Shown piece after piece: positions 8,295 to 44,569 of a DNA stretch of 64,000 nt; position 1 is the stretch's first letter, and the number at the start of each line of letters is the position of its first letter. The notes beneath the pieces are model-generated. The model was not told the DNA's origin, did not search any database, and worked only from the letters and a program-made list of their open reading frames with translations. Origin of the DNA: an uncultured Candidatus Saccharibacteria bacterium (GTDB lineage Bacteria > Patescibacteriota > Minisyncoccia > Phycocordibacterales > Phycocordibacteraceae). Where the stretch lies: positions 49,486-113,485 of the forward strand of contig CAYGGK010000001.1 in the NCBI GenBank assembly GCA_964349555.1, written 5' to 3'. Position numbers and translations under genes: made by a program.

Positions 8295-8876
8295 ATGGGT
8301 AAGCTTGAGACAGCATCGCGTAAAAGAAGAAGGAAACAGAATATACAACATGCCGTACTTGCTGCCGTTGCGGTCGTTGGGCTGCTCGCATGGGCGGCAG
8401 TTGCTCCGAACACTCTGAAACTCCTACGGTATTTGCCTAAAGAAAAGTACAATCTCGGATATCGAGCTCGCACGGCTGCTGGACGCCTCGTTACTAAAGG
8501 CCAGGCAAAATGGGTTGAAAGAGGTGGTAAAAAATATTTGCGACTAACTCCGGCCGGTCACAAAGCGCTTGCGTTTGAACAAACAAAGGTTACTCTCAAA
8601 AATCAGAAAAAGAAGTGGGATTGTCGGTGGCGAATGGTTGTTTTTGATATTCCAGAACGGCGGCGGCGCATTAGGATTCGTTTGCGCACATATATGAGCG
8701 AAGTCGGTTTCGTACGACTGCAGGATAGCGTGTGGGTATATCCCTACGATTGCGAAGATTTTATCGCACTTCTTAAGGCAGAGCTAAAGATCGGTAAGGA
8801 CGTACTTTATGCGATTGCTGACACAATTGAACACGACCGAGACATTCGTAAGTACTTCCATCTGCCGGAGCAATAG
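8295..8876 (+). CDS. PaaX-like (Cas2-fold middle domain) putative transcriptional regulator, paralog 1
   Basis: N-terminal hydrophobic wHTH-like segment. The motif WDCRWRMVVFDIPERRRRIRIRLR...GFVRLQDSVWVYPY recalls the PaaX middle domain. It shares about 45% identity, judged by eye, with the ORF at 15663-16250. Confidence 0.55.
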   Translation: MGKLETASRKRRRKQNIQHAVLAAVAVVGLLAWAAVAPNTLKLLRYLPKEKYNLGYRARTAAGRLVTKGQAKWVERGGKKYLRLTPAGHKALAFEQTKVTLKNQKKKWDCRWRMVVFDIPERRRRIRIRLRTYMSEVGFVRLQDSVWVYPYDCEDFIALLKAELKIGKDVLYAIADTIEHDRDIRKYFHLPEQ

Positions 8877-10856: not shown

Positions 10857-11348
10857 ATGCGCACCTCTTTCGTTGCAGCAATCATGTTCTTCGCGCTCGC
10901 GTCTTCGGCACTCGCACTTGGTCCATCAGGCGGCGGGACCGTCACCCCTCCCCCTCCAACTGTAGATCCAGTGCTCCAAGCAGAACAAGAGGCGGCGGCT
11001 AATTCGGGGTCGATCAATAATATCCCTACGCAAATCTCGCCAAGTGTAAATAATGTTCCGGGTGGCTCCAACGTCACCCTCGTCAATCCGTTAAGAGGCG
11101 GCGGGGACTTGATGACCTTCCTTCAAAACATCCTTGATTTCGTCATTGAAATCGGCACGGTCGTCGTCGTCCTCATGCTGGTGTATGTCGGCTACCTCTT
11201 TGTTGCCGCACAAGGGAACGAGACAAAAATAACCGAAGCGCGCAACGCGCTCCTCTGGACCGTCGTCGGCGCACTCATCCTCCTCGGCTCCAAAGCGATA
11301 GCCATCGGTATAGAGGCGACGGCGCAGGCGCTCTCGGTTGGCGGCTGA
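10857..11348 (+). CDS. Pilin-like two-TM peptide P1 (VirB2/TrbC-like topology), signal peptide
   Basis: Signal peptide, Pro/Gly-rich linker, then hydrophobic helix, charged loop (QGNETKITEARNALLW) and a second hydrophobic helix. Most divergent member of the array. Confidence 0.45.
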   Translation: MRTSFVAAIMFFALASSALALGPSGGGTVTPPPPTVDPVLQAEQEAAANSGSINNIPTQISPSVNNVPGGSNVTLVNPLRGGGDLMTFLQNILDFVIEIGTVVVVLMLVYVGYLFVAAQGNETKITEARNALLWTVVGALILLGSKAIAIGIEATAQALSVGG

Positions 11349-11625
11349 TATGGCCACGTCGTTTAAAGAATTTATCGGGGACAGCACGACTGGCGTCGTA
11401 GGCGCCATCAACACCGTCATTGTACCCGTCATATTCGCGCTCGCGCTCGCCGCCTTCGTCTGGGGCATCTACAAATACTTCATCTTGGGAGCAGCGAACG
11501 AGTCAGAAAAAGCAGAGGGCCGCACGTTCGCCCTGTGGGGCCTCATCGGCATAGTGCTCCTCTTCTCCGTCTGGGGATTTGTTAATTTGTTGCTATCCAC
11601 GCTCGGCCTCACGGCCACCGGCTGA
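11338..11625 (+). CDS. Pilin-like two-TM peptide P2
   Basis: Core VIVPVIFALALAAFVWGIYKYFILGAANESEKAEGRTFALWGLIGIVLLFSVWGFVNLL. No signal peptide. Confidence 0.55.
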   Translation: MAADMATSFKEFIGDSTTGVVGAINTVIVPVIFALALAAFVWGIYKYFILGAANESEKAEGRTFALWGLIGIVLLFSVWGFVNLLLSTLGLTATG

Positions 11626-11644
11626 TGTGTCATACTTACGCTAT

Positions 11645-12100
11645 ATGAAATCCATCACGCGTCTCGCTCTTATTCTCACTGCTTCTTTAGTGTGCGTCGC
11701 GCCGTCATTTGCGCTCGCGCAGACTCAAATTTATTCAGACTCATCCGGCAACTTCCAATACAACAGCCCTAGCTTCTCAATCGGTTTCGGGAGCGGTGGC
11801 ATGTTTATGTGCGGGGCGAGCAACATCTGCCGTGTTGCGTCCACCATCATCTACGTCATCAACAACGTGCTCGTGCCGCTCCTCTTCGCCGCCGCCTTCA
11901 TCACGTTTCTCTACGGCGTCGTCTCCAAGTACATCTTCTCTTATGGGGACGCCGAGAAGGTGAAGGAGGGTCACAAACTCATTCTCTGGGGTATTCTCGC
12001 CTTTGTCATTATGATATCGCTTTGGGGCCTCGTGAATGTCGTCGCGAACACCTTCGGCCTCTACGGCATCTCCGCGCCGCCCCTGCCGAGCTCATTCTGA
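11645..12100 (+). CDS. Pilin-like two-TM peptide P3, signal peptide
   Basis: Signal peptide (MKSITRLALILTASLVCVAPSFALA). Core INNVLVPLLFAAAFITFLYG...GDAEKVKEGHKLILWGILAFVIMISLWGLVNVV. Confidence 0.55.
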   Translation: MKSITRLALILTASLVCVAPSFALAQTQIYSDSSGNFQYNSPSFSIGFGSGGMFMCGASNICRVASTIIYVINNVLVPLLFAAAFITFLYGVVSKYIFSYGDAEKVKEGHKLILWGILAFVIMISLWGLVNVVANTFGLYGISAPPLPSSF

Positions 12101-12112
12101 TAGAACAGAAAC

Positions 12113-12610
12113 ATGAAAAAATACCTCACAGCCCTCGCCCTTGCTTTCTTTGTCTTTGCGCCTTTGGCGCTGGCACAGCCCGCAGAAACTACTGAGATAC
12201 CATTCACTGGCACTACTGACCTGCAACCGTTCGGAGAAACTACTACCGACAATGACAACGTACAGTTCGACGACCAAATCTATAACGGCCTAACACAAAC
12301 ACAGGGAGGTACCGGAGGTGGCATCAACATAGGAGTCATCAAGCCGTATGCGGACAGCATTATCGGCATCATCAACTTCATCTTCCTCCCGGTTATCATG
12401 GCGGTTGCCTTCATCGTCTTCATCTGGGGCATCTACAAATACTTTATCTTGGGTGCGTCGAACGAATCAGAAAAAGCAGAGGGTCGTAAGTTTGCGATGT
12501 GGGGCATCATCGGCTTCGCCATCATCATCTCTATCTGGGGCCTTGTGAATACCTTTACGGGCGCCCTAAATCTGCAGGGTGGGCGCGCCCCGAGGATTCC
12601 AACCCTCTAA
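12113..12610 (+). CDS. Pilin-like two-TM peptide P4, signal peptide
   Basis: Signal peptide, then the core FLPVIMAVAFIVFIWGIYKYFILGASNESEKAEGRKFAMWGIIGFAIIISIWGLVNTF, which is nearly identical to P2. Confidence 0.55.
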   Translation: MKKYLTALALAFFVFAPLALAQPAETTEIPFTGTTDLQPFGETTTDNDNVQFDDQIYNGLTQTQGGTGGGINIGVIKPYADSIIGIINFIFLPVIMAVAFIVFIWGIYKYFILGASNESEKAEGRKFAMWGIIGFAIIISIWGLVNTFTGALNLQGGRAPRIPTL

Positions 12611-12691
12611 ATAGGGGGCTATCCACACGCCGAGATAAGGTATATTGACCAAGCCGGTAAAGACGTTACTATTAAGAGCAGTTAATCACTT

Positions 12692-13075
12692 ATGTATACT
12701 ATGAAAAAAGCACTTGCCCTCGCTACCGGAACGCTCGTCGCGCTCGCCCTGCCGCTTGTCTCGTCGGCCCAAACGGTGCGGAACCTTTCGGATGCCGGTT
12801 CGCTCATTATCAACGTTATCAATAATGTGCTAGTCCCCGTGCTCTTCGCTGTTGCTTTCATCGTCTTCCTTTGGGGAGCGTTCAATACTTTCATTCTAGG
12901 TCAGGGCTCCGAAGATGTGAAAGAGAAAGGCAAGAGTCTCATGTTGTACGGCCTTATCGGCTTCTTCGTCATGGTCTCCATCTGGGGCTTGGTGAACATC
13001 CTCACTGGCACCGTGAGCTTCGGTAATACGACGGGGCCAAGCAATACGCCTTCATCAGGCGTTCAGGTCAGATAA
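12692..13075 (+). CDS. Pilin-like two-TM peptide P5, signal peptide
   Basis: Signal peptide. Core INNVLVPVLFAVAFIVFLWG...GQGSEDVKEKGKSLMLYGLIGFFVMVSIWGLVNIL. Confidence 0.55.
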   Translation: MYTMKKALALATGTLVALALPLVSSAQTVRNLSDAGSLIINVINNVLVPVLFAVAFIVFLWGAFNTFILGQGSEDVKEKGKSLMLYGLIGFFVMVSIWGLVNILTGTVSFGNTTGPSNTPSSGVQVR

Positions 13076-13348
13076 ATGCCGGTTCTCCACGAATTCCTCG
13101 GGAAGGTTGTCGTAGAAATCGTCAACCCGCTCATCCTCCTTTTGGCGGCTGTCGCCTTTGTCCTCTTTCTCTGGGGAGTGTTTGAATTCGTGGCTCACGC
13201 TGGAGACGAGACGAAACGCACAGAGGGCAAGAGAGCCATTATGTGGGGCCTTGTCGGCCTCGTCGTTATCTTCGGTGTGTACGGCATTCTCAATATTTTG
13301 ACGGATACGTTTAATCTGGAGCGGGTTAAAAAGATAAGCGGCTTATAA
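13076..13348 (+). CDS. Pilin-like two-TM peptide P6
   Basis: Core LILLLAAVAFVLFLWG...HAGDETKRTEGKRAIMWGLVGLVVIFGVYGILNIL. No signal peptide. Confidence 0.5.
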   Translation: MPVLHEFLGKVVVEIVNPLILLLAAVAFVLFLWGVFEFVAHAGDETKRTEGKRAIMWGLVGLVVIFGVYGILNILTDTFNLERVKKISGL

Positions 13349-15617: not shown

Positions 15618-15669
15618 TGGGAAATCAACAATTCTTGCTATAGCAGAAGTTGTTGATAGTTGTTATTTA
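15618..15669. repeat. Repeat R2a: ~52-bp element containing the imperfect palindrome ATCAACAATTCTTGCTATAGCAGAAGTTGTTGAT
   Basis: Seen directly. Copies at 16268-16301 (same orientation) and 30199-30250 (reverse complement, 1 mismatch in the core). Confidence 0.8.
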
Positions 15670-16250
15670 AAAGGGAGGCCGAAATGTTTGCGTATCCACA
15701 CATCATTCTCTATTTCTTCCACAACCGCATAGAGCACGTCCTTGCCGATATGCAGGTCTGCTTTAAGGAGGGCAACAAATTCTTCACAGTTGTACGGATA
15801 AATCCACGCGCTGTCCTGTACACGGAGAAAACCGACCTCTTGTACGTGATGCCGTAATATTTCACGAGTCTTTTTCCGTTTTTCTGGAACGTCAAACAGT
15901 ATCAAGCGGTAACGCCGATCCCACTTGCGCGGTTTGTGCGCGAGAAGAGAGAGCCTCTGTTGTTCCATGGCTAAAGACTCTTCACCACGTCTTGTAAGGC
16001 GCACACAACGTTTCCCGTCATGTTCGACGAACTCAATCTCGCCCTTCATTTTCAATCGCGCGAGAATGCCTCTGGTCTGATACTTAAGTTTGGCAAGAAC
16101 GCCGCTCTTCCCAAGCATCTGAAACATGTTAGGTGCAATGGCCGCAACAGCGATAACTCCGGCTACACCTATCGTCATAAGCATCGCGCTGCGTACATTG
16201 CGGCGCCTACTCTTCTGCGCGGCACTCGCTTCAAGAGATTTCATGTACAC
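15663..16250 (-). CDS. PaaX-like (Cas2-fold middle domain) putative transcriptional regulator, paralog 2
   Basis: WDRRYRLILFDVPEKRKKTREILRHHVQEVGFLRVQDSAWIYPYNCEEFVALLKADLHIGKDVLYA aligns residue-for-residue with the ORF at 8295-8876. Confidence 0.55.
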   Translation of the reverse strand: MYMKSLEASAAQKSRRRNVRSAMLMTIGVAGVIAVAAIAPNMFQMLGKSGVLAKLKYQTRGILARLKMKGEIEFVEHDGKRCVRLTRRGEESLAMEQQRLSLLAHKPRKWDRRYRLILFDVPEKRKKTREILRHHVQEVGFLRVQDSAWIYPYNCEEFVALLKADLHIGKDVLYAVVEEIENDVWIRKHFGLPFK

Positions 16251-20910: not shown

Positions 20911-21666
20911 ATGAACATAGAAGAACTCTCCAAATCCCAACTCATTCTGCTCACGATTCTCGTGAACTTCGTCACCTCCGTCGCGACTGGAATCTTGACG
21001 GTTTCCCTACTTGACCGCGCGCCGTCATTTGTCACTCAAACAGTCAATCGCGTCGTGGAGCACACCATTGAGACCATTGCGCAGGCAACGCCTACGATTA
21101 TTCAAGCCCCCGCACCCTCCAACCAGGACCTGGTCACTGCGGCGATAGGATCGGCGGCCATTCGCGCAGTCGCCATTTATTCCGCAGAAACCGGCACCTC
21201 AACGCCGGCTCTTTCCGTCGGTACGTATATTCCCAAAGCGCGCGCCATCGCCACCGCCACGCAAGGCGCTTTGCCCAAAGAGGCACTTATAGAATTTCCG
21301 GGCGGTCTCTATATTCCCGCATCACTTGCGCAGGAGGGCGGCGGCGTCGCTATTTACGGTTTCGCAGATGATGCCATTCTGCCAAAGGGTACGTCGCCTG
21401 TTTTGGTGGCCGCGAGCGACTTAAAGCTCGGAGAGACCGTTCTTGCTCTTGGTGCCGATGGTTCGGCTTCTACCGGCATAGTCGCGCGGGTGGGCGGCGA
21501 GAACATTTACACGACACTGCCGGACATAGGCGCGGGAAGCGGCGCGGTGAACCTCTCCGGCAATCTCATCGGCATCGGTGTCGGAGTGAAGCCTGGGCTC
21601 CTCATTTCCGCGGGTAGGATCAGCGCACTTCTCACGGCGACCACGACTTCAGCACAATCGCGTTAA
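20911..21666 (+). CDS. Membrane-anchored protein with degenerate trypsin-like fold (probably non-catalytic)
   Basis: N-terminal TM. GAGSGAVNLSGNLIGIGV echoes the GDSGGP...G.VIGI motif of trypsin-like proteases, but the Ser and His positions are not conserved. Confidence 0.3.
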   Translation: MNIEELSKSQLILLTILVNFVTSVATGILTVSLLDRAPSFVTQTVNRVVEHTIETIAQATPTIIQAPAPSNQDLVTAAIGSAAIRAVAIYSAETGTSTPALSVGTYIPKARAIATATQGALPKEALIEFPGGLYIPASLAQEGGGVAIYGFADDAILPKGTSPVLVAASDLKLGETVLALGADGSASTGIVARVGGENIYTTLPDIGAGSGAVNLSGNLIGIGVGVKPGLLISAGRISALLTATTTSAQSR

Positions 21667-21678
21667 GACATACCACAC

Positions 21679-24390
21679 ATGCCTCCATTCAATAATTTCA
21701 CCACAAAAGCAAAAGAGGCCGTGCGTCGAGCGCATGAGCTCGCGATAGAACGCGGACAAAACCACGTCTCGCCGCTCCACTTGCTCGCCGCTCTCGTTCT
21801 CCAAGAGGAATCGCTCGTCTTCTCGATGCTCGACCGTATGGAAATTGACACCGTTGCACTTGCAGACTCGGTACTTGAACACTTGGAGACGCCCGAGACC
21901 GCCACCGTGCTCTCACCCTCATACCAGATATATCTCACACCGGATCTTGCGCAGGCACTTGAAGCATCGGGGAAAATAGCCGCGCGCATGAACGACACCT
22001 TCGTCGGCACCGAGCATCTTTTCCTAGCGGTCATTGAGCACCCCGGACAAGCCGCTGATATTTTCACGCGTTTTTCCATAGGTAGAGACGCGGCGCTTGC
22101 CATCCTCAAGGAACTCAAGAGCTCAAAGGACGGACAAACGGCGGAGCCGAAACGTTTCCGCGCGCTCGCCAAGTACGCCCGCAACCTCACCAAGCTCGCT
22201 TCAGAGAACAAACTGGACCCGGTTATCGGTCGCGATGTTGAGATTAACAGAGTCATTCAAATCCTCGCGCGCCGAACCAAGAATAATCCAATACTTATCG
22301 GCGAAGCGGGAGTAGGGAAGACCGCCATTGCCGAAGGTCTTGCCGCGCGCATGGCCACCGGCGATGTCCCGCAATCACTAAAAGGAAAAGAGCTTCTCTC
22401 GCTCGATCTTGGGCTTATGGTCGCTGGTACGAAGTATCGCGGCGAATTTGAAGAACGGATGAAAAGTGTGATGAAGGAAGTTGAGCGATCAGAAGGGAAG
22501 GCGATCCTCTTCATTGACGAACTCCATACACTTGTCGGTGCCGGAGGCGCCGAGGGTTCTCTAGACGCCTCAAATATGCTGAAGCCCGCGCTTTCGCGCG
22601 GAGATATCCGTGTCATCGGCGCAACCACACTCAAGGAATATCAAAAATATATAGAAAAAGACGCCGCGCTTACCCGCCGCTTCCAGTCAGTGTTCGTACA
22701 GGAGCCGTCGATAGAGGACGGTATCGCCATTTTGCGCGGACTTCGCGACAAGTATGAGCTCTTTCACGGCGTGCGTATCACCGATGGCGCTATCGTTGCG
22801 GCCGTTGAGCTCTCGGCGCGCTACATTAGCGATCGATTTTTACCGGACAAGGCTATTGACCTCATTGATGAAGCGGCCTCCGGACTGCGCATCGCGCTTG
22901 AGAACAAGCCGCCGCTTCTTGATGAAACCGACCGAAAAATTCGCCGTCTGGAAATTGAGCGGCAGGCGCTCCAGAAGGACGCAGAGCTCGCGTCCGCCGG
23001 AGGCGCTACCGCTTCGGGTGGAAAGGAAATCAAAGAGCGTATCAAAGAGATAGATACTGAAGTCGCCGACTTGAAGGAGACAACGAGCGAACTTGAGCTC
23101 AAGTGGAAGAATGAAAAAGAAGTACTTGAAGGTATTCGTGCGGATAAGACCGAGCTTGAGAAGTTGAAAATACAAGCGGACAACGCCGAGATGACGGCCG
23201 ACCTCGGGACGGTCGCAGAGATACGGTATGGCAAGATGCCCCACTTACAAAAAGATTTAGAAACCAAGCTCAAGCGTTTAAAGACGCTCCAAAAGTCGCG
23301 GCGCGTGCTGAACGAAGAGGTGGCTGAGCAGGACATCGCGTCGGTTGTGAGCCGTTGGACCGGCATTCCTGTTGCGCGGATGCTTGAGGAAGAGGCGTCA
23401 AAGCTCTCGCGTATGGAGGAGTGGCTCAGAAACAGCATTATCGGACAGGACAGCGCGGTGAAAAAAGTCACCGATGCCGTGAAGCGCTCCAGAGTGGGCA
23501 TCTCTGACCCGAACCGTCCGATTGGCTCGTTCCTCTTCCTCGGTCCCACTGGCGTGGGGAAGACTGAACTCTCCAAGAAACTTGCGGAGTTTATGTTTAA
23601 TGATGTGGATGCGCTTGTCCGCGTTGATATGAGCGAATTTATGGAGAAACACTCGGTTGCGAAGCTTATTGGCGCGCCGCCGGGCTACGTTGGATATGAA
23701 GAAGCGGGTACCTTGACCGAGCGCATACGACATCGTCCGTACGCGGTAGTGCTCTTTGACGAGATAGAAAAGGCGCACCCGGAAGTATTCAATATTCTCC
23801 TCCAGGTGCTCGACTCCGGCCACCTCACCGACGGCAAGGGTCGCAAGATTAATTTCAAGAACACTATTATCGTGCTCACTTCAAATATCGGCGGTGAGTT
23901 CATAGACCGCCTCGCGCACATCGGTTTTGGGAAGGCTGGTGCGACCGACGCGACGCGTTACGAGGAGACGAAGGAGAAGGTGATGGGAGCGCTTAAAGAA
24001 CACTTCCGACCCGAGTTTCTTAATCGCCTTGATGACATTATTATCTTTGATGTGCTCGCGAAGGAGGCACTCGCGCGCATTGTTGATACGCAGATTGAAG
24101 AGGTGATGAAACGGCTCACGCAGAAGCGCATCGCGCTTGTTATAGAACCGCCCGTGCGAACATGGCTCGCAGAGAAGGGATATAATCCACAGTACGGCGC
24201 CCGCCCCCTACGTCGCACTATCCAGGACAAGATACTGACGCCGCTTGCCTCAATGATGGTTGAACAGGGCCTCATGGAAGGCGGCACCGTCACGGTCTCC
24301 ATTAAAAATGACGAGCCGCATTTTGACGTGAAGAAGAAGTTGACTAGAACGAAACCCAAAAGCGCGAAAAAAGAGACCAGCATTGCCTAA
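21679..24390 (+). CDS. clpB: ATP-dependent chaperone ClpB
   Basis: N-domain, two AAA+ modules ([30 protein letters not shown]), long M-domain coiled coil, sensor-2. Confidence 0.95.
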
Positions 24391-24597: not shown

Positions 24598-24668
24598 GGG
24601 CCTATAGTTTAGCGGTAAAACAGCGGTCTCCAAAACCGCCGTCCCAGGTTCGAGTCCTGGTGGGCCCG
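24598..24668 (+). tRNA. tRNA-Trp (anticodon CCA)
   Basis: Acceptor GGGCCTA/TGGGCCC, anticodon stem GCGGT/ACCGC, loop CTCCAAA, T-arm CCAGG TTCGAGT CCTGG. Confidence 0.8.
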
Positions 24669-24719
24669 CACGGTGGGGAAAATCATATTCTCCCTCTAGA
24701 TACGCGGTATACTATCTCT

Positions 24720-25733
24720 ATGCGTTCCCGCACAGCTCTGTTTGCACTCTTGCTCGTCGCGGGCTCTCTCGCGTTGCCTCTCGTCGCGCAGGCGGGCATC
24801 CCATTCTTCGGTCCAATCATCGAGCCTAATATTTCGAACATTGCAACGAATTCCCAGTATTGTCCTCTGGGTTGGGGTGCAGTCATCGTCGTTATCAATA
24901 ACATAATCAGCCTCCTTATAACGCTCGCTATCGTCTTTGTTGCGCCACTGATGATCGCATGGGCCGGTTTTCTTCTTGTCGTAAATCCGGTGAATGCGGG
25001 CGGGAAAGAAGAAGCGAAAAAGATTCTTACTAATACCGTTGTCGGCATCGTTCTCGCGCTTGCGGGTTACATGATAGTGGCCGCGCTCATGGCAGTTCTC
25101 TACGATTCTAGGGAGGTGGGTAAAACATGGACACAACTCATTACCTCAGGTGGCCTAGACCCCTGCATGGAGATTGCCGGGAGCCTCAACCAAGCTCAGC
25201 AGGAAGCCGGAGCTCCGACTCCAGGTGTTGCCGTAGCCCCAGGCGCGTGTCCGGCGCCGCTTTCGTCGCTTACCGACCCGTCCGCGACTCAAATGGAAGG
25301 AGGGCAGACTGTGATATGGACTAATACCGACCCTCGGCTACAAGCATGCGCAAACAAATTCATAAGAGACGCAGGTGGCGGCAGTGTTACTTCTGCATAC
25401 AGGCCGCAATCGTATCAGACGCATTTATGGGAGATACATGACCGATGGTGTACGCAGGGTTTGAAATCTAATTCGGACCCAGTATGCAGTTCTCTCAGAG
25501 ATACTGTTTCTCAGGAAGTGGCAAAGCACGGCCTTTCCTCCTGTGGCTCCGTTGCTCAAAATGCCTCTAATCATGGCAATCCACAGGGCGCGAGCATTGG
25601 AGTCGATATTAGTCTTACCAGTGGTGATTATAGCGGGACACAAACGTTGGCGTCGCAATCGTGTCTTACATGGGCAAATTATCCAGGAGATCAATGGCAC
25701 TACAACCTTAAATCTAGCTGTTCGTGCCAATAA
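24720..25733 (+). CDS. Secreted or membrane fusion protein: N-terminal pilin-like two-TM module plus C-terminal Cys-rich M15 (VanY-like) peptidoglycan peptidase domain
   Basis: Signal peptide. Two TM helices around the loop NPVNAGGKEEAKKIL. The C-terminus has SAYRPQSYQ (SxYRS...Q), GASIGVDIS (G.A.DI) and DQWHYN (WHY), matching the three M15 zinc-binding signatures; many Cys. The start was trimmed to 24720, downstream of tRNA-Trp. Confidence 0.55.
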   Translation: MRSRTALFALLLVAGSLALPLVAQAGIPFFGPIIEPNISNIATNSQYCPLGWGAVIVVINNIISLLITLAIVFVAPLMIAWAGFLLVVNPVNAGGKEEAKKILTNTVVGIVLALAGYMIVAALMAVLYDSREVGKTWTQLITSGGLDPCMEIAGSLNQAQQEAGAPTPGVAVAPGACPAPLSSLTDPSATQMEGGQTVIWTNTDPRLQACANKFIRDAGGGSVTSAYRPQSYQTHLWEIHDRWCTQGLKSNSDPVCSSLRDTVSQEVAKHGLSSCGSVAQNASNHGNPQGASIGVDISLTSGDYSGTQTLASQSCLTWANYPGDQWHYNLKSSCSCQ

Positions 25734-43397: not shown

Positions 43398-43928
43398 ATG
43401 CTCTATCAGAGAATCGTGTGGAGTATTCTTGGGCTAGCACTGGCCTTGATGATGGTTAATCCGGCCGATGCTAAAGAGAGCACCAACAAGCTCTTTTTTC
43501 AAAAAGAATTCAGAGGAAGATTACTCTTCGTAGAGGCAACAACCGACCCAGACAAAGGCGTGGGAGATCCCACCGCATCTCACTTGAGACACGATTATAC
43601 CAGTCTTTTGGAGAAATCCGGCTGGCAAAAAGCCCCCGATGAATATCGGAACGCCGCCATCTCGTGCCTTATTTACGAGAAGAAAGATAGCGTACTCGTG
43701 GGGTGCTGGAACAATAATCCTGGCGATGACCTCTTGGCGCTCGTGGTCATCCTCATGGACAACGAGATTGATTCCCTCATCAACAAAGCAATAGAGTTGA
43801 TGATTGATAAGATGATTGCCCCTCCGTCTCCTCGGGAACCGTCGCGTGATTCTTTGTACTGTGCCTTTTGGCCCCGCGCTCTAAACAGCGCGGGGTCCAT
43901 GTTTTGGAGTGATACAATAAAGTCATGA
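43398..43928 (+). CDS. Secreted hypothetical protein
   Basis: Signal peptide; no domain recognised. Confidence 0.3.
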   Translation: MLYQRIVWSILGLALALMMVNPADAKESTNKLFFQKEFRGRLLFVEATTDPDKGVGDPTASHLRHDYTSLLEKSGWQKAPDEYRNAAISCLIYEKKDSVLVGCWNNNPGDDLLALVVILMDNEIDSLINKAIELMIDKMIAPPSPREPSRDSLYCAFWPRALNSAGSMFWSDTIKS

Positions 43929-44569
43929 AATTTAAGGCGATGGACACATTAAATCTTCGCTTTGGCCCGAGCGTTGATAGCCCTAAAACGGGAAGCATTC
44001 CAGCAGGGACTATTGTGGAGAGCGATGAATACTCGTGGAAGGCCGTTACGTTGCCCGACGGTAAAAAAGGATTCTGCGCGGCGACGTATCTGCAGGCAGT
44101 GCCTGCGAGTAAGTGGTCGGTACCAATCAGAATTGACAAATTTAAAGTGACTCAGAAATTTTTAAATCAAGACCCTGTCACTTATCCTAAAACAGGGCAC
44201 CACCCGGGTACCGACTACGGCACAAAGGGGGAAGTCAACGTACCTCTTTATTTTTGTGCGGATGGGGAAGTTATAGAGAGAGGCTCCCACAGTTCTTTTG
44301 GAAATTATTTTTTCTACTATGTTCCAGAGGTAGATCGCACCTTCGTATATTTTCATTTGCGAGACGCCGCCCCTGCGAAAGGGCACTATACAGTCGGGGG
44401 GCCATGCGGCATCGCGGGGGAAACAGGTCTCTCGCACGGCATTCATCTGCACTTGGAGTGCATGAAAGGTAAGAAAACATCTGCAAACCGCGCTCTCTTG
44501 TATACTTCAAAAGAAGCTCTGGTCGTCTCTGCGGAGGACGCAGACGCGTTTATCAAAGCGCGTCTTTAA
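43925..44569 (+). CDS. SH3b-domain plus M23 (lysostaphin-like) peptidase
   Basis: The N-terminal pattern (LNLRFGPSVDSPKTGSIPAGTIV...WKAVTLPDGKKGFCAATYL) resembles SH3b. M23 motifs HHPGTDY (HxxxD) and SHGIHLHLE (HxH). Confidence 0.7.
   Translation: MKFKAMDTLNLRFGPSVDSPKTGSIPAGTIVESDEYSWKAVTLPDGKKGFCAATYLQAVPASKWSVPIRIDKFKVTQKFLNQDPVTYPKTGHHPGTDYGTKGEVNVPLYFCADGEVIERGSHSSFGNYFFYYVPEVDRTFVYFHLRDAAPAKGHYTVGGPCGIAGETGLSHGIHLHLECMKGKKTSANRALLYTSKEALVVSAEDADAFIKARL

Follow-up and report, generated by a model that had tools for sequence, protein, structure and literature searches.

The 64,000-nucleotide stretch analysed here (hereafter the window; contig CAYGGK010000001.1, positions 49,486 to 113,485) encodes at 24720..25733 of its forward strand a 337-residue protein in which a pilin-like carrier is fused to a C-terminal M15-type peptidase, the reading frame running from an ATG at 24720 to a TAA at 25731-25733. 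The gene, placed by the initial annotation directly after rpmG and tRNA-Trp, is real and its coordinates are exact, and a protein identical to its product (P0001) occurs in public assemblies, on contigs as long as 233 kb. A longer, TTG-started open reading frame (ORF) from 24591 was considered and rejected as the gene: it overlaps tRNA-Trp (24598..24669), and ATG 24720 is therefore the true start. Relatives of the protein carry the labels Kaiserbacteria, Paceibacterota or Parcubacteria, all within the candidate phyla radiation (CPR)/Patescibacteria, and the window itself is from an ultrasmall, Kaiserbacteria-like member of this group. As detailed below, the gene very probably encodes an exported M15 wall peptidase borne on a pilin homologue, whose enzymatic head is exchangeable.

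The N-terminal half has the anatomy first ascribed to it, namely a signal peptide, a helix, the loop NPVNAGGKEEAKK and a second helix. The Sec-type signal peptide (24720..24794, + strand, residues 1-25, MRSR...LVAQA; hydrophobic segment 3-31, model helix 5-25) is conserved in sequence across carriers with different heads, and cleavage after its AxA motif would expose GIPFFGPII (24795..24821, + strand, residues 26-34) as the predicted mature N-terminus, in which I27, P28, F29, G31, P32, I33 and I34 are invariant in 15 carriers bearing different heads. There follows a hairpin of the VirB2/T4SS_pilin type (24861..25100, + strand), comprising C48, a helix at residues 52-88, a short, Lys/Glu-rich loop at 89-101 and a second helix at 102-127; C48 and C149, which flank the hairpin on its predicted outer side, could form a staple. 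A junction and linker (25101..25247, + strand; …TWxxLITSGG..C149..GSLxQA, then Pro/Ala/Gly-rich at 162-176) complete the carrier, with predicted local distance difference test (pLDDT) values below 50 at residues 155-173. It is here that homology among different-headed relatives ends, the carriers aligning to about residue 150-160 regardless of the head that follows.

Kinship of this module with pilins of the same genome is supported by profile comparisons. Six stand-alone T4SS_pilin genes (the islet; 10857..13348, + strand), whose products all clear the PF18895 cut-off (E 4e-10 to 3e-7), encode the top six non-self matches of an orthologue-derived hidden Markov model (HMM) of the N-terminal module among the 415 ORFs of the window, at E values of 5e-12 to 4e-3 against 0.47 for the next-best ORF, and hhalign pairs the module with the islet alignment at 95.9% probability (E 5.8e-9). 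This ranking, together with the hhalign result, bears out the proposal that the module aligns with the six islet peptides better than random proteins with two transmembrane segments do. Furthermore, PF18895 is matched by 36 of 46 aligned orthologues (E<=0.01), several of which carry a precomputed PF18895 assignment. The protein thus displays a signal peptide, two hydrophobic helices, a short charged loop and homology to bona fide family members; it departs from the small, stand-alone format of the family in its 337 residues and in the ~190-residue enzyme behind the hairpin, the islet pilins being 90-165 residues long. By homology and architecture, as judged from sequence, we assign the carrier to the T4SS_pilin/VirB2 family.

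The C-terminal half corresponds to a predicted cysteine-rich, M15/VanY-like zinc peptidase domain of LAS fold (25248..25730, + strand, residues 177-337). The initial annotation had listed SAYRPQSYQ (residues 225-233), GASIGVDIS (290-298) and DQWHYN (324-329) as three zinc-ligand signatures, and all three lie where claimed; the first, however, is not a zinc-ligand motif. SAYRPQSYQ (25392..25418, + strand; S225, Y227, R228, Q233) is the Ser/Tyr/Arg/Gln substrate-pocket motif, which we take to bind the substrate carboxylate as in VanX/LdcB-type enzymes, and the first predicted ligand is instead H285 of an SNH triplet just upstream of GASIGVDIS. The predicted ligand set accordingly comprises H285 and D296, joined in an SNH-x10-D element (25566..25610, + strand), and H327 of DQWH (25689..25700, + strand), where D324 is the candidate catalytic acid. 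An Asp before the last His is found in phage-type M15 endopeptidases, VanX and VanY using Glu. Across 46 aligned sequences S283, H285, D296 and H327 are invariant and S225, Y227, R228, Q233 and D324 at least 90% conserved, in keeping with the M15 pattern S-x-H-x(n)-D plus (D/E)-x-x-H plus SxYR..Q. The H-x10-D spacing reflects a four-residue insertion that the window protein has in common with P0021, most orthologues having H-x6-D. Among 70 more distant relatives the S, R and Y of SxYR and an H-x2-G-x3-D element are invariant and D-x-x-H nearly so. The cysteines, first put at about a dozen, in fact number ten, eight in this domain and two flanking the hairpin, and all of them are conserved in 43-44 of 44 orthologues.

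A direct HMMER search for M15/VanY with the window protein, which the initial annotation had suggested, is negative, with no M15 family at E<=1; what supports the assignment is thus the orthologues, the invariant residues and the fold. VanY (PF02557) is matched by 24 of 46 orthologues at E<=0.01; P0043, P0052, P0133 and P0134 score 25.2-27.2 against the cut-off of 25 bits, with others at 24.8-24.9. An exhaustive HMMER search with a profile of the head recovered 598 cluster representatives, and 48 of 70 mid-range ones match VanY. The head has the Hedgehog/DD-peptidase fold, and its structural neighbours include the carboxypeptidases LdcB, DacB, VanY and VanXY. Foldseek with the window protein returned no match, the head-only profile found nothing relevant among PDB chains, and in PHROGs neither the head nor its orthologues had a match, save that the distant relative P0134 weakly hit an endolysin family. 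By fold, ligands and transitive HMM matches, the head is nonetheless a member of the M15/VanY superfamily, and the view of the C-terminal half as an M15/VanY-type zinc peptidase is upheld.

Searched against PDB chains, the full-length profile yields weak matches to Hedgehog N-domains and to nothing else (E 0.65-2), aligning to SLHYEGRAVDI and pairing the SxH...D element and the last His correctly. This raises the alternative of a zinc-stabilised binding module akin to the Hedgehog N-domain, which, by binding wall peptides or some ligand on the host surface, would make the protein a pilus adhesin. We consider such a role highly improbable: the full M15 catalytic complement, R228 and D324 included, is conserved, the nearest structural neighbours are active peptidases, and the alternative heads with a family assignment described below (SLT, SLT_3, LAS-like) all belong to enzyme families.

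The fusion itself is kept in every orthologue found, both halves being present in 66 of the best 120 relatives. Two such orthologues (P0028 and P0041, 50-58% identity) share the neighbourhood clpB, rpmG, fusion gene (X), miaA, peroxiredoxin gene (prx), parB and relA/spoT. The other 54 of the best 120 match in the carrier only, which is 60-73% identical to that of the window, signal peptide included, and is followed by different C-terminal domains. We collected loci by a pattern-based search with the carrier alignment, one genome per species, and obtained at least 79 loci from 79 assemblies, in some 65 of which the match occupies the slot clpB-rpmG-tRNA-Trp-X-miaA-prx-parB. Recurrence of the same arrangement in about 65 independent metagenome-assembled genomes rules out misassembly, and the fusion, initially judged unusual, turns out not to be peculiar to the window genome and to be the rule at a conserved housekeeping locus in its clade.

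What varies at this locus is the head. The commonest, an SLT_3-type lysozyme-like domain at 33 loci, is assigned by similarity to a class three members of which carry precomputed PF18896, the tail giving no Pfam match when scanned directly. A Hedgehog/LAS-like head follows at 14 loci, on the strength of a moderate-confidence model (pLDDT 64); the cysteine-rich M15 head of the window type is found at 7, an SLT head (PF01464, E 1e-18) at 4 and a 'VanY2' class, recognised at the motif level only, at 1. A few further loci have unclassified or truncated heads, including a variant related to the LAS-like class (hhalign 98%), and among the protein matches one relative (P0105) shows a weak CHAP match. 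Mean carrier identity to the window carrier is 59.9% for M15, 58.0% for LAS-like, 56.9% for SLT_3 and 59.6% for SLT loci, and is thus independent of head type. In a neighbour-joining tree of MiaA and Prx, which we use qualitatively, the head types are intermixed, M15 heads occur in at least six separate places, and 22 of 48 entries agree in head type with their nearest neighbour, chance alone predicting 13.4. Loci with unrelated heads still have ClpB proteins that are 81-92% identical. Paralogues of a single genome were considered and rejected as the source of the heads: each of the 79 assemblies contributes one locus among those returned by the pattern-based search, with tandem genes in L033 and L049 only. 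The protein sequences present at least five or six predicted wall-hydrolase heads as interchangeable on one carrier at one locus, and it is this feature that is most informative on function. The consecutive numbering of PF18895 and PF18896 suggests that curators had seen the architecture of pilin plus SLT_3. Public records name such proteins 'pilin' or 'hypothetical', and in the literature searched, the coverage of which is incomplete, we found no description of pilin-hydrolase fusions, head swapping or a pilin as toxin carrier.

Close relatives of the head nearly all carry the pilin module. In another lineage, P0131-P0133 have a cysteine-rich M15 head (38-41% identical) behind a single-pass N-terminal anchor, and P0134, in other lineages, has it behind a signal peptide only. 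Among the 70 more distant relatives, 20 are joined to T4SS_pilin, 7 to eCIS_core (DUF4157) and 1 to RHS repeats, and a handful are large surface proteins of FG-GAP or TcdB-like type. Where eCIS_core or RHS is present, the head stands at the C-terminal end, and the C-terminal position behind eCIS_core is the toxin position in proteins associated with extracellular contractile injection systems (eCIS; PMC8213781), which indicates that this head family is used elsewhere as delivered cargo.

The occurrence of the same head with a single-pass anchor or a signal peptide alone, the presence of LdcB, DacB, VanY and VanXY among its structural neighbours and the housekeeping genomic context could all be accommodated by a plain, membrane-anchored housekeeping carboxypeptidase that trims the cell's own stem peptides in the manner of LdcB, DacB or VanY, the hairpin being a leftover anchor with no link to a pilus. 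We deem this unlikely: a trimming enzyme would not be functionally interchangeable with the lytic transglycosylases or lysozyme-like domains that occupy this slot elsewhere, and the pilin-family features and the invariant mature N-terminus across all head types argue for a role beyond anchoring.

Two loci hold genes with different heads side by side. L033 (2372-5571; OY969413.1, a complete Kaiserbacteria chromosome) holds two tandem pilin-hydrolase genes, one with a LAS-like and one with an SLT_3-like head, whose DNA matches at ~99% from ~60 bp ahead of the ATG through ~480 bp and loses this identity abruptly at the linker. At L049 (3941-6516) a LAS-type gene is followed by a frameshifted SLT_3-type copy. 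Furthermore, in 33 loci, essentially all of the SLT_3-type loci that extend far enough, the fusion gene is followed by a partner gene for a membrane-anchored protein of ~190-205 residues with the C-terminus ...NLGFSFCPGATxLPQ (e.g., L010 4969-5583, L012 5076-5675 and L014 4942-5505), for which no Pfam match was found. It is absent from the window and from loci that have an M15, LAS or SLT head alone; the LAS-type genes of L033 and L049 stand in tandem with an SLT_3-type copy, and in L033 a partner-like gene lies behind each of the two tandem genes. The partner is a candidate inhibitor, immunity or accessory protein. That it might be an immunity gene strictly tied to glycan-cutting heads is a tentative reading only, the SLT loci being without it and one L033 copy standing behind a LAS-type head.

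Upstream of the fusion gene, clpB (21679-24390) is followed by rpmG for ribosomal protein L33 (24418..24573, + strand), a 51-residue ORF whose orthologous gene in related loci has PF00471 and which tblastn places upstream of gene X in most related loci. The ensuing tRNA-Trp (CCA; + strand, identified with ARAGORN) lies directly upstream of the fusion gene here and in 24 of 24 related loci examined (L008-L063), ~75-150 bp away. In most of these it is encoded on the strand opposite to the fusion gene, the window, L016 and L052 having both on the same strand, and alignment shows a genuine inversion of the tRNA-Trp gene alone between rpmG and gene X. Downstream, miaA is convergent, its stop lying on the other strand 11 nt past that of the fusion gene, and beyond it come prx, tRNA-Leu and parB. 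In the window, a membrane-anchored ORF of 251 residues (20911-21666, + strand) is located between an aminotransferase gene and clpB; it has a counterpart of 250-255 residues at the same position in related loci, and neither has a Pfam match.

A TATACT box resembling a -10 element (24708..24713, + strand) ends 6 nt before the start codon. Such a GGTATGAT/GGTATACT box recurs in 6 of 6 aligned loci, always equally close to the start codon, and a GGGGAAAG motif ~30 nt farther upstream of it is conserved in them as well. There is no room for a Shine-Dalgarno leader before ATG 24720, pointing to a promoter dedicated to this gene and to an mRNA with little or no leader; a scan for the sigma-70 consensus found no full promoter upstream of the gene, and a possible promoter of its own is therefore only a lead.

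Elsewhere in the window, the islet belongs to known biology, as arrays of 2-11 pilin genes have been described in Patescibacteria, including an essential array of six in Southlakia epibionticum (PMC12102498, PMC10633639, PMC12857230); its six divergent members equal the latter in number. Together with two membrane-protein genes it occupies a region of ~7 kb bracketed by two paralogous, oppositely oriented ORFs of ~195 residues (8295-8876, + strand, and 15663-16250, - strand), whose shared pattern reads ...KWDxRxRxxxFDxPExxRxxR...VGFxRxQDSxWxYPYxCExFxALLKAxLxIGKDVLYA... A second candidate wall hydrolase is encoded at 43925-44569 (+ strand), with SH3_3 (E 7e-7) and a Peptidase_M23 score of 26.5 bits against a cut-off of 28.7; as another LAS-fold enzyme, it indicates that the genome does not rely on the fusion gene alone for wall cutting.

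We propose the following mechanism. The signal peptide would take the protein through Sec, and the hairpin would settle in the membrane with its Lys/Glu loop inside and, in the predicted topology, both ends outside, so that the ~50-residue junction and linker would hold the disulfide-rich head outside the cell; a signal peptide and hairpin as well as ten fully conserved cysteines are hallmarks of an extracytoplasmic protein. Zinc would be held by H285, D296 and H327, R228 and the SxYR..Q motif would grip the peptide stem, and, with D324 as catalytic acid, the head would cut a bond in the stem peptide of peptidoglycan. As a true homologue of the pilins of the genome's six-gene array, the hairpin is presumably more than an anchor and may couple the enzyme to a type IV secretion system (T4SS)-type pilus or contact apparatus, for instance as a minor or first-in subunit. 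The head is an exchangeable cassette, related species keeping the carrier at the same slot with unrelated wall hydrolases. Its target would be the wall of a partner or host cell, and the protein would serve an epibiont in breaching that wall, with a head suited to the chemistry of the host. Our preference for the host wall stems from heads that turn over fast compared with the flanking genes, from gene copies in tandem or in decay, from the cassette with its linked partner and from relatives in toxin positions. For the statement as a whole, from an exported M15 peptidase on a pilin module with an exchangeable head to pilus coupling and a host-wall target, we see the chances as evenly balanced.

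Several observations weigh against this reading. At the level of the protein, the window sequence scores 14.8 bits against PF18895, below the cut-off of 26.6, and neither it nor its C-terminal 197 residues has a Pfam M15 or an NCBIfam match. There may be no room in a pilus lattice for a VirB2-type subunit with a ~190-residue head, whose polymerisation is hypothetical, and the plain single-pass anchor of P0131-P0133 indicates that a simple tether can suffice. The fusion gene resides among housekeeping genes rather than in a T4SS-gene neighbourhood: the carrier's homologues in the islet do not adjoin it, lying 11 kb upstream, and no VirB4/VirD4-like ORF was recognised on reading the larger translations of the 64-kb window (ORFs of at least 80 residues up to 21.7 kb and of at least 150 residues from 28 kb), with no HMM search run for these, so that neither the fusion gene nor the islet is seen to adjoin a T4SS ATPase gene there. 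No immunity-like gene follows the M15 allele, which convergent miaA abuts, though export would place the enzyme on the surface of the producer itself. Finally, the LAS assignment of the second-commonest head depends on its pLDDT 64 model, and the MiaA and Prx tree is built on two short proteins and has no support values.

The main rival is a wall opener directed at the producer itself. As a VirB1 analogue or general autolysin tethered by the pilin-type hairpin, the enzyme would cut the producer's own peptidoglycan and let a T4SS pilus, other envelope machines or the division septum pass, a task for which any mesh-opening head would serve. Such a role would account for each genome contributing one fusion locus to the pattern-based search (two of them with tandem copies) and for the conserved housekeeping position of this locus in ~65 genomes, as well as for the missing immunity gene beside surface-exposed enzymes in the M15, LAS and SLT alleles. 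A membrane tether with a short linker reaches its own wall most easily, and the heads at the locus (SLT, lysozyme-like, LAS-type peptidase and weak CHAP) resemble the VirB1-like domain types of Gram-positive T4SSs, most VirB2-bearing Patescibacteria having no recognisable VirB1 (PMC12102498). It fits less well with heads that turn over fast relative to their flanks, being unrelated between loci whose ClpB remains so similar, with different heads on the near-identical carriers of tandem copies, with head relatives in eCIS_core and RHS toxin positions, or with a fusion gene that has no T4SS gene alongside it in the window. We regard self-directed opening as a possibility to be taken seriously, though not the one we prefer; both it and the host-wall reading are live, and the evidence does not decisively separate them.

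A more specific form of the host-wall reading sees in these proteins a polymorphic, pilin-delivered effector of Kaiserbacteria-like CPR bacteria, encoded in the one slot beside tRNA-Trp, in which M15, Hedgehog/LAS-like, SLT and SLT_3 heads, swapped by recombination in the linker, would be displayed on or at the tip of a T4SS-type pilus and match the wall chemistry of the host. We put this forward tentatively and regard it as rather doubtful in its full form. If true, the pilin would be the trafficking domain of a polymorphic effector family, and epibionts would have a concrete mechanism for opening the host envelope. T4SS-like machines and VirB2-like pilin arrays are essential in the one genetically tractable patescibacterium (PMC10633639, PMC12102498, PMC12857230), and the covalent fusion of a pilin homologue with a wall hydrolase would link a T4SS-like apparatus directly to wall breaching. 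Should the target be the host wall, the locus would offer a compact, comparable measure of how uncultured epibionts adapt to their hosts, and new lytic enzymes could be drawn from it; should it be the producer's own, the locus would supply the 'missing VirB1' of patescibacterial T4SS-like systems.

Set beside known systems, the head has in common with the M15 LAS-fold enzymes (VanY, VanXY, VanX, LdcB/DacB and the phage endolysins LysB4 and Ply500) the zinc-ligand pattern His...Asp...His, SxYR..Q, S-x-H and (D/E)-x-x-H, and its orthologues reach the PF02557 cut-off. It differs in that the window protein has no Pfam M15 match, H-x10-D in place of H-x6-D, eight conserved cysteines within the domain and Asp rather than Glu, and in being mounted on a pilin-type hairpin instead of a signal anchor, an SH3 or another wall-binding domain. 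The carrier, for its part, shares with the patescibacterial VirB2/TrbC pilins (PF18895) a signal peptide, two hydrophobic helices and a Lys/Glu-rich loop. Unlike them, the fusion protein has a C-terminal enzyme of ~190 residues, the invariant GIPFFGPII and two invariant cysteines flanking the hairpin, and unlike the arrayed pilins it has a gene that stands by itself among housekeeping genes; identity between the carriers of different genomes is 40-71%, whereas array pilins average 25% within an array (PMC12102498).

As in VirB1-like hydrolases such as TraG of pIP501 and PrgK of pCF10 (PMC12102498), a peptidoglycan hydrolase is tied to a T4SS component, here physically, and the heads at the locus (SLT, lysozyme-like, LAS-type and weak CHAP) overlap the domain types of those enzymes. 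The fusion gene nevertheless lies outside a T4SS cluster, its hydrolase is joined to a pilin rather than free or single-pass anchored, and the window allele is M15 rather than SLT, lysozyme-like or CHAP, M15 not being reported for VirB1 homologues in PMC12102498; the protein is not a member of the VirB1 family, though it may work like one. Polymorphic toxins (Rhs, eCIS-associated DUF4157 and the contact-dependent inhibition type) offer a parallel in their conserved N-terminal part, sharp junction and unrelated heads among close relatives, with further likenesses in tandem and degraded extra copies, in one head type that travels with a partner gene and in head relatives behind eCIS_core and RHS (PMC8213781). 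In contrast to such toxins, the M15, LAS and SLT alleles have no immunity-like gene beside them, the assignable heads are all wall hydrolases rather than a mix of nucleases, deaminases and others, the site is a single-copy, syntenic housekeeping one, and the delivery part is a pilin homologue. The likeness to a polymorphic effector locus thus covers three respects, whereas an adjacent immunity gene is lacking.

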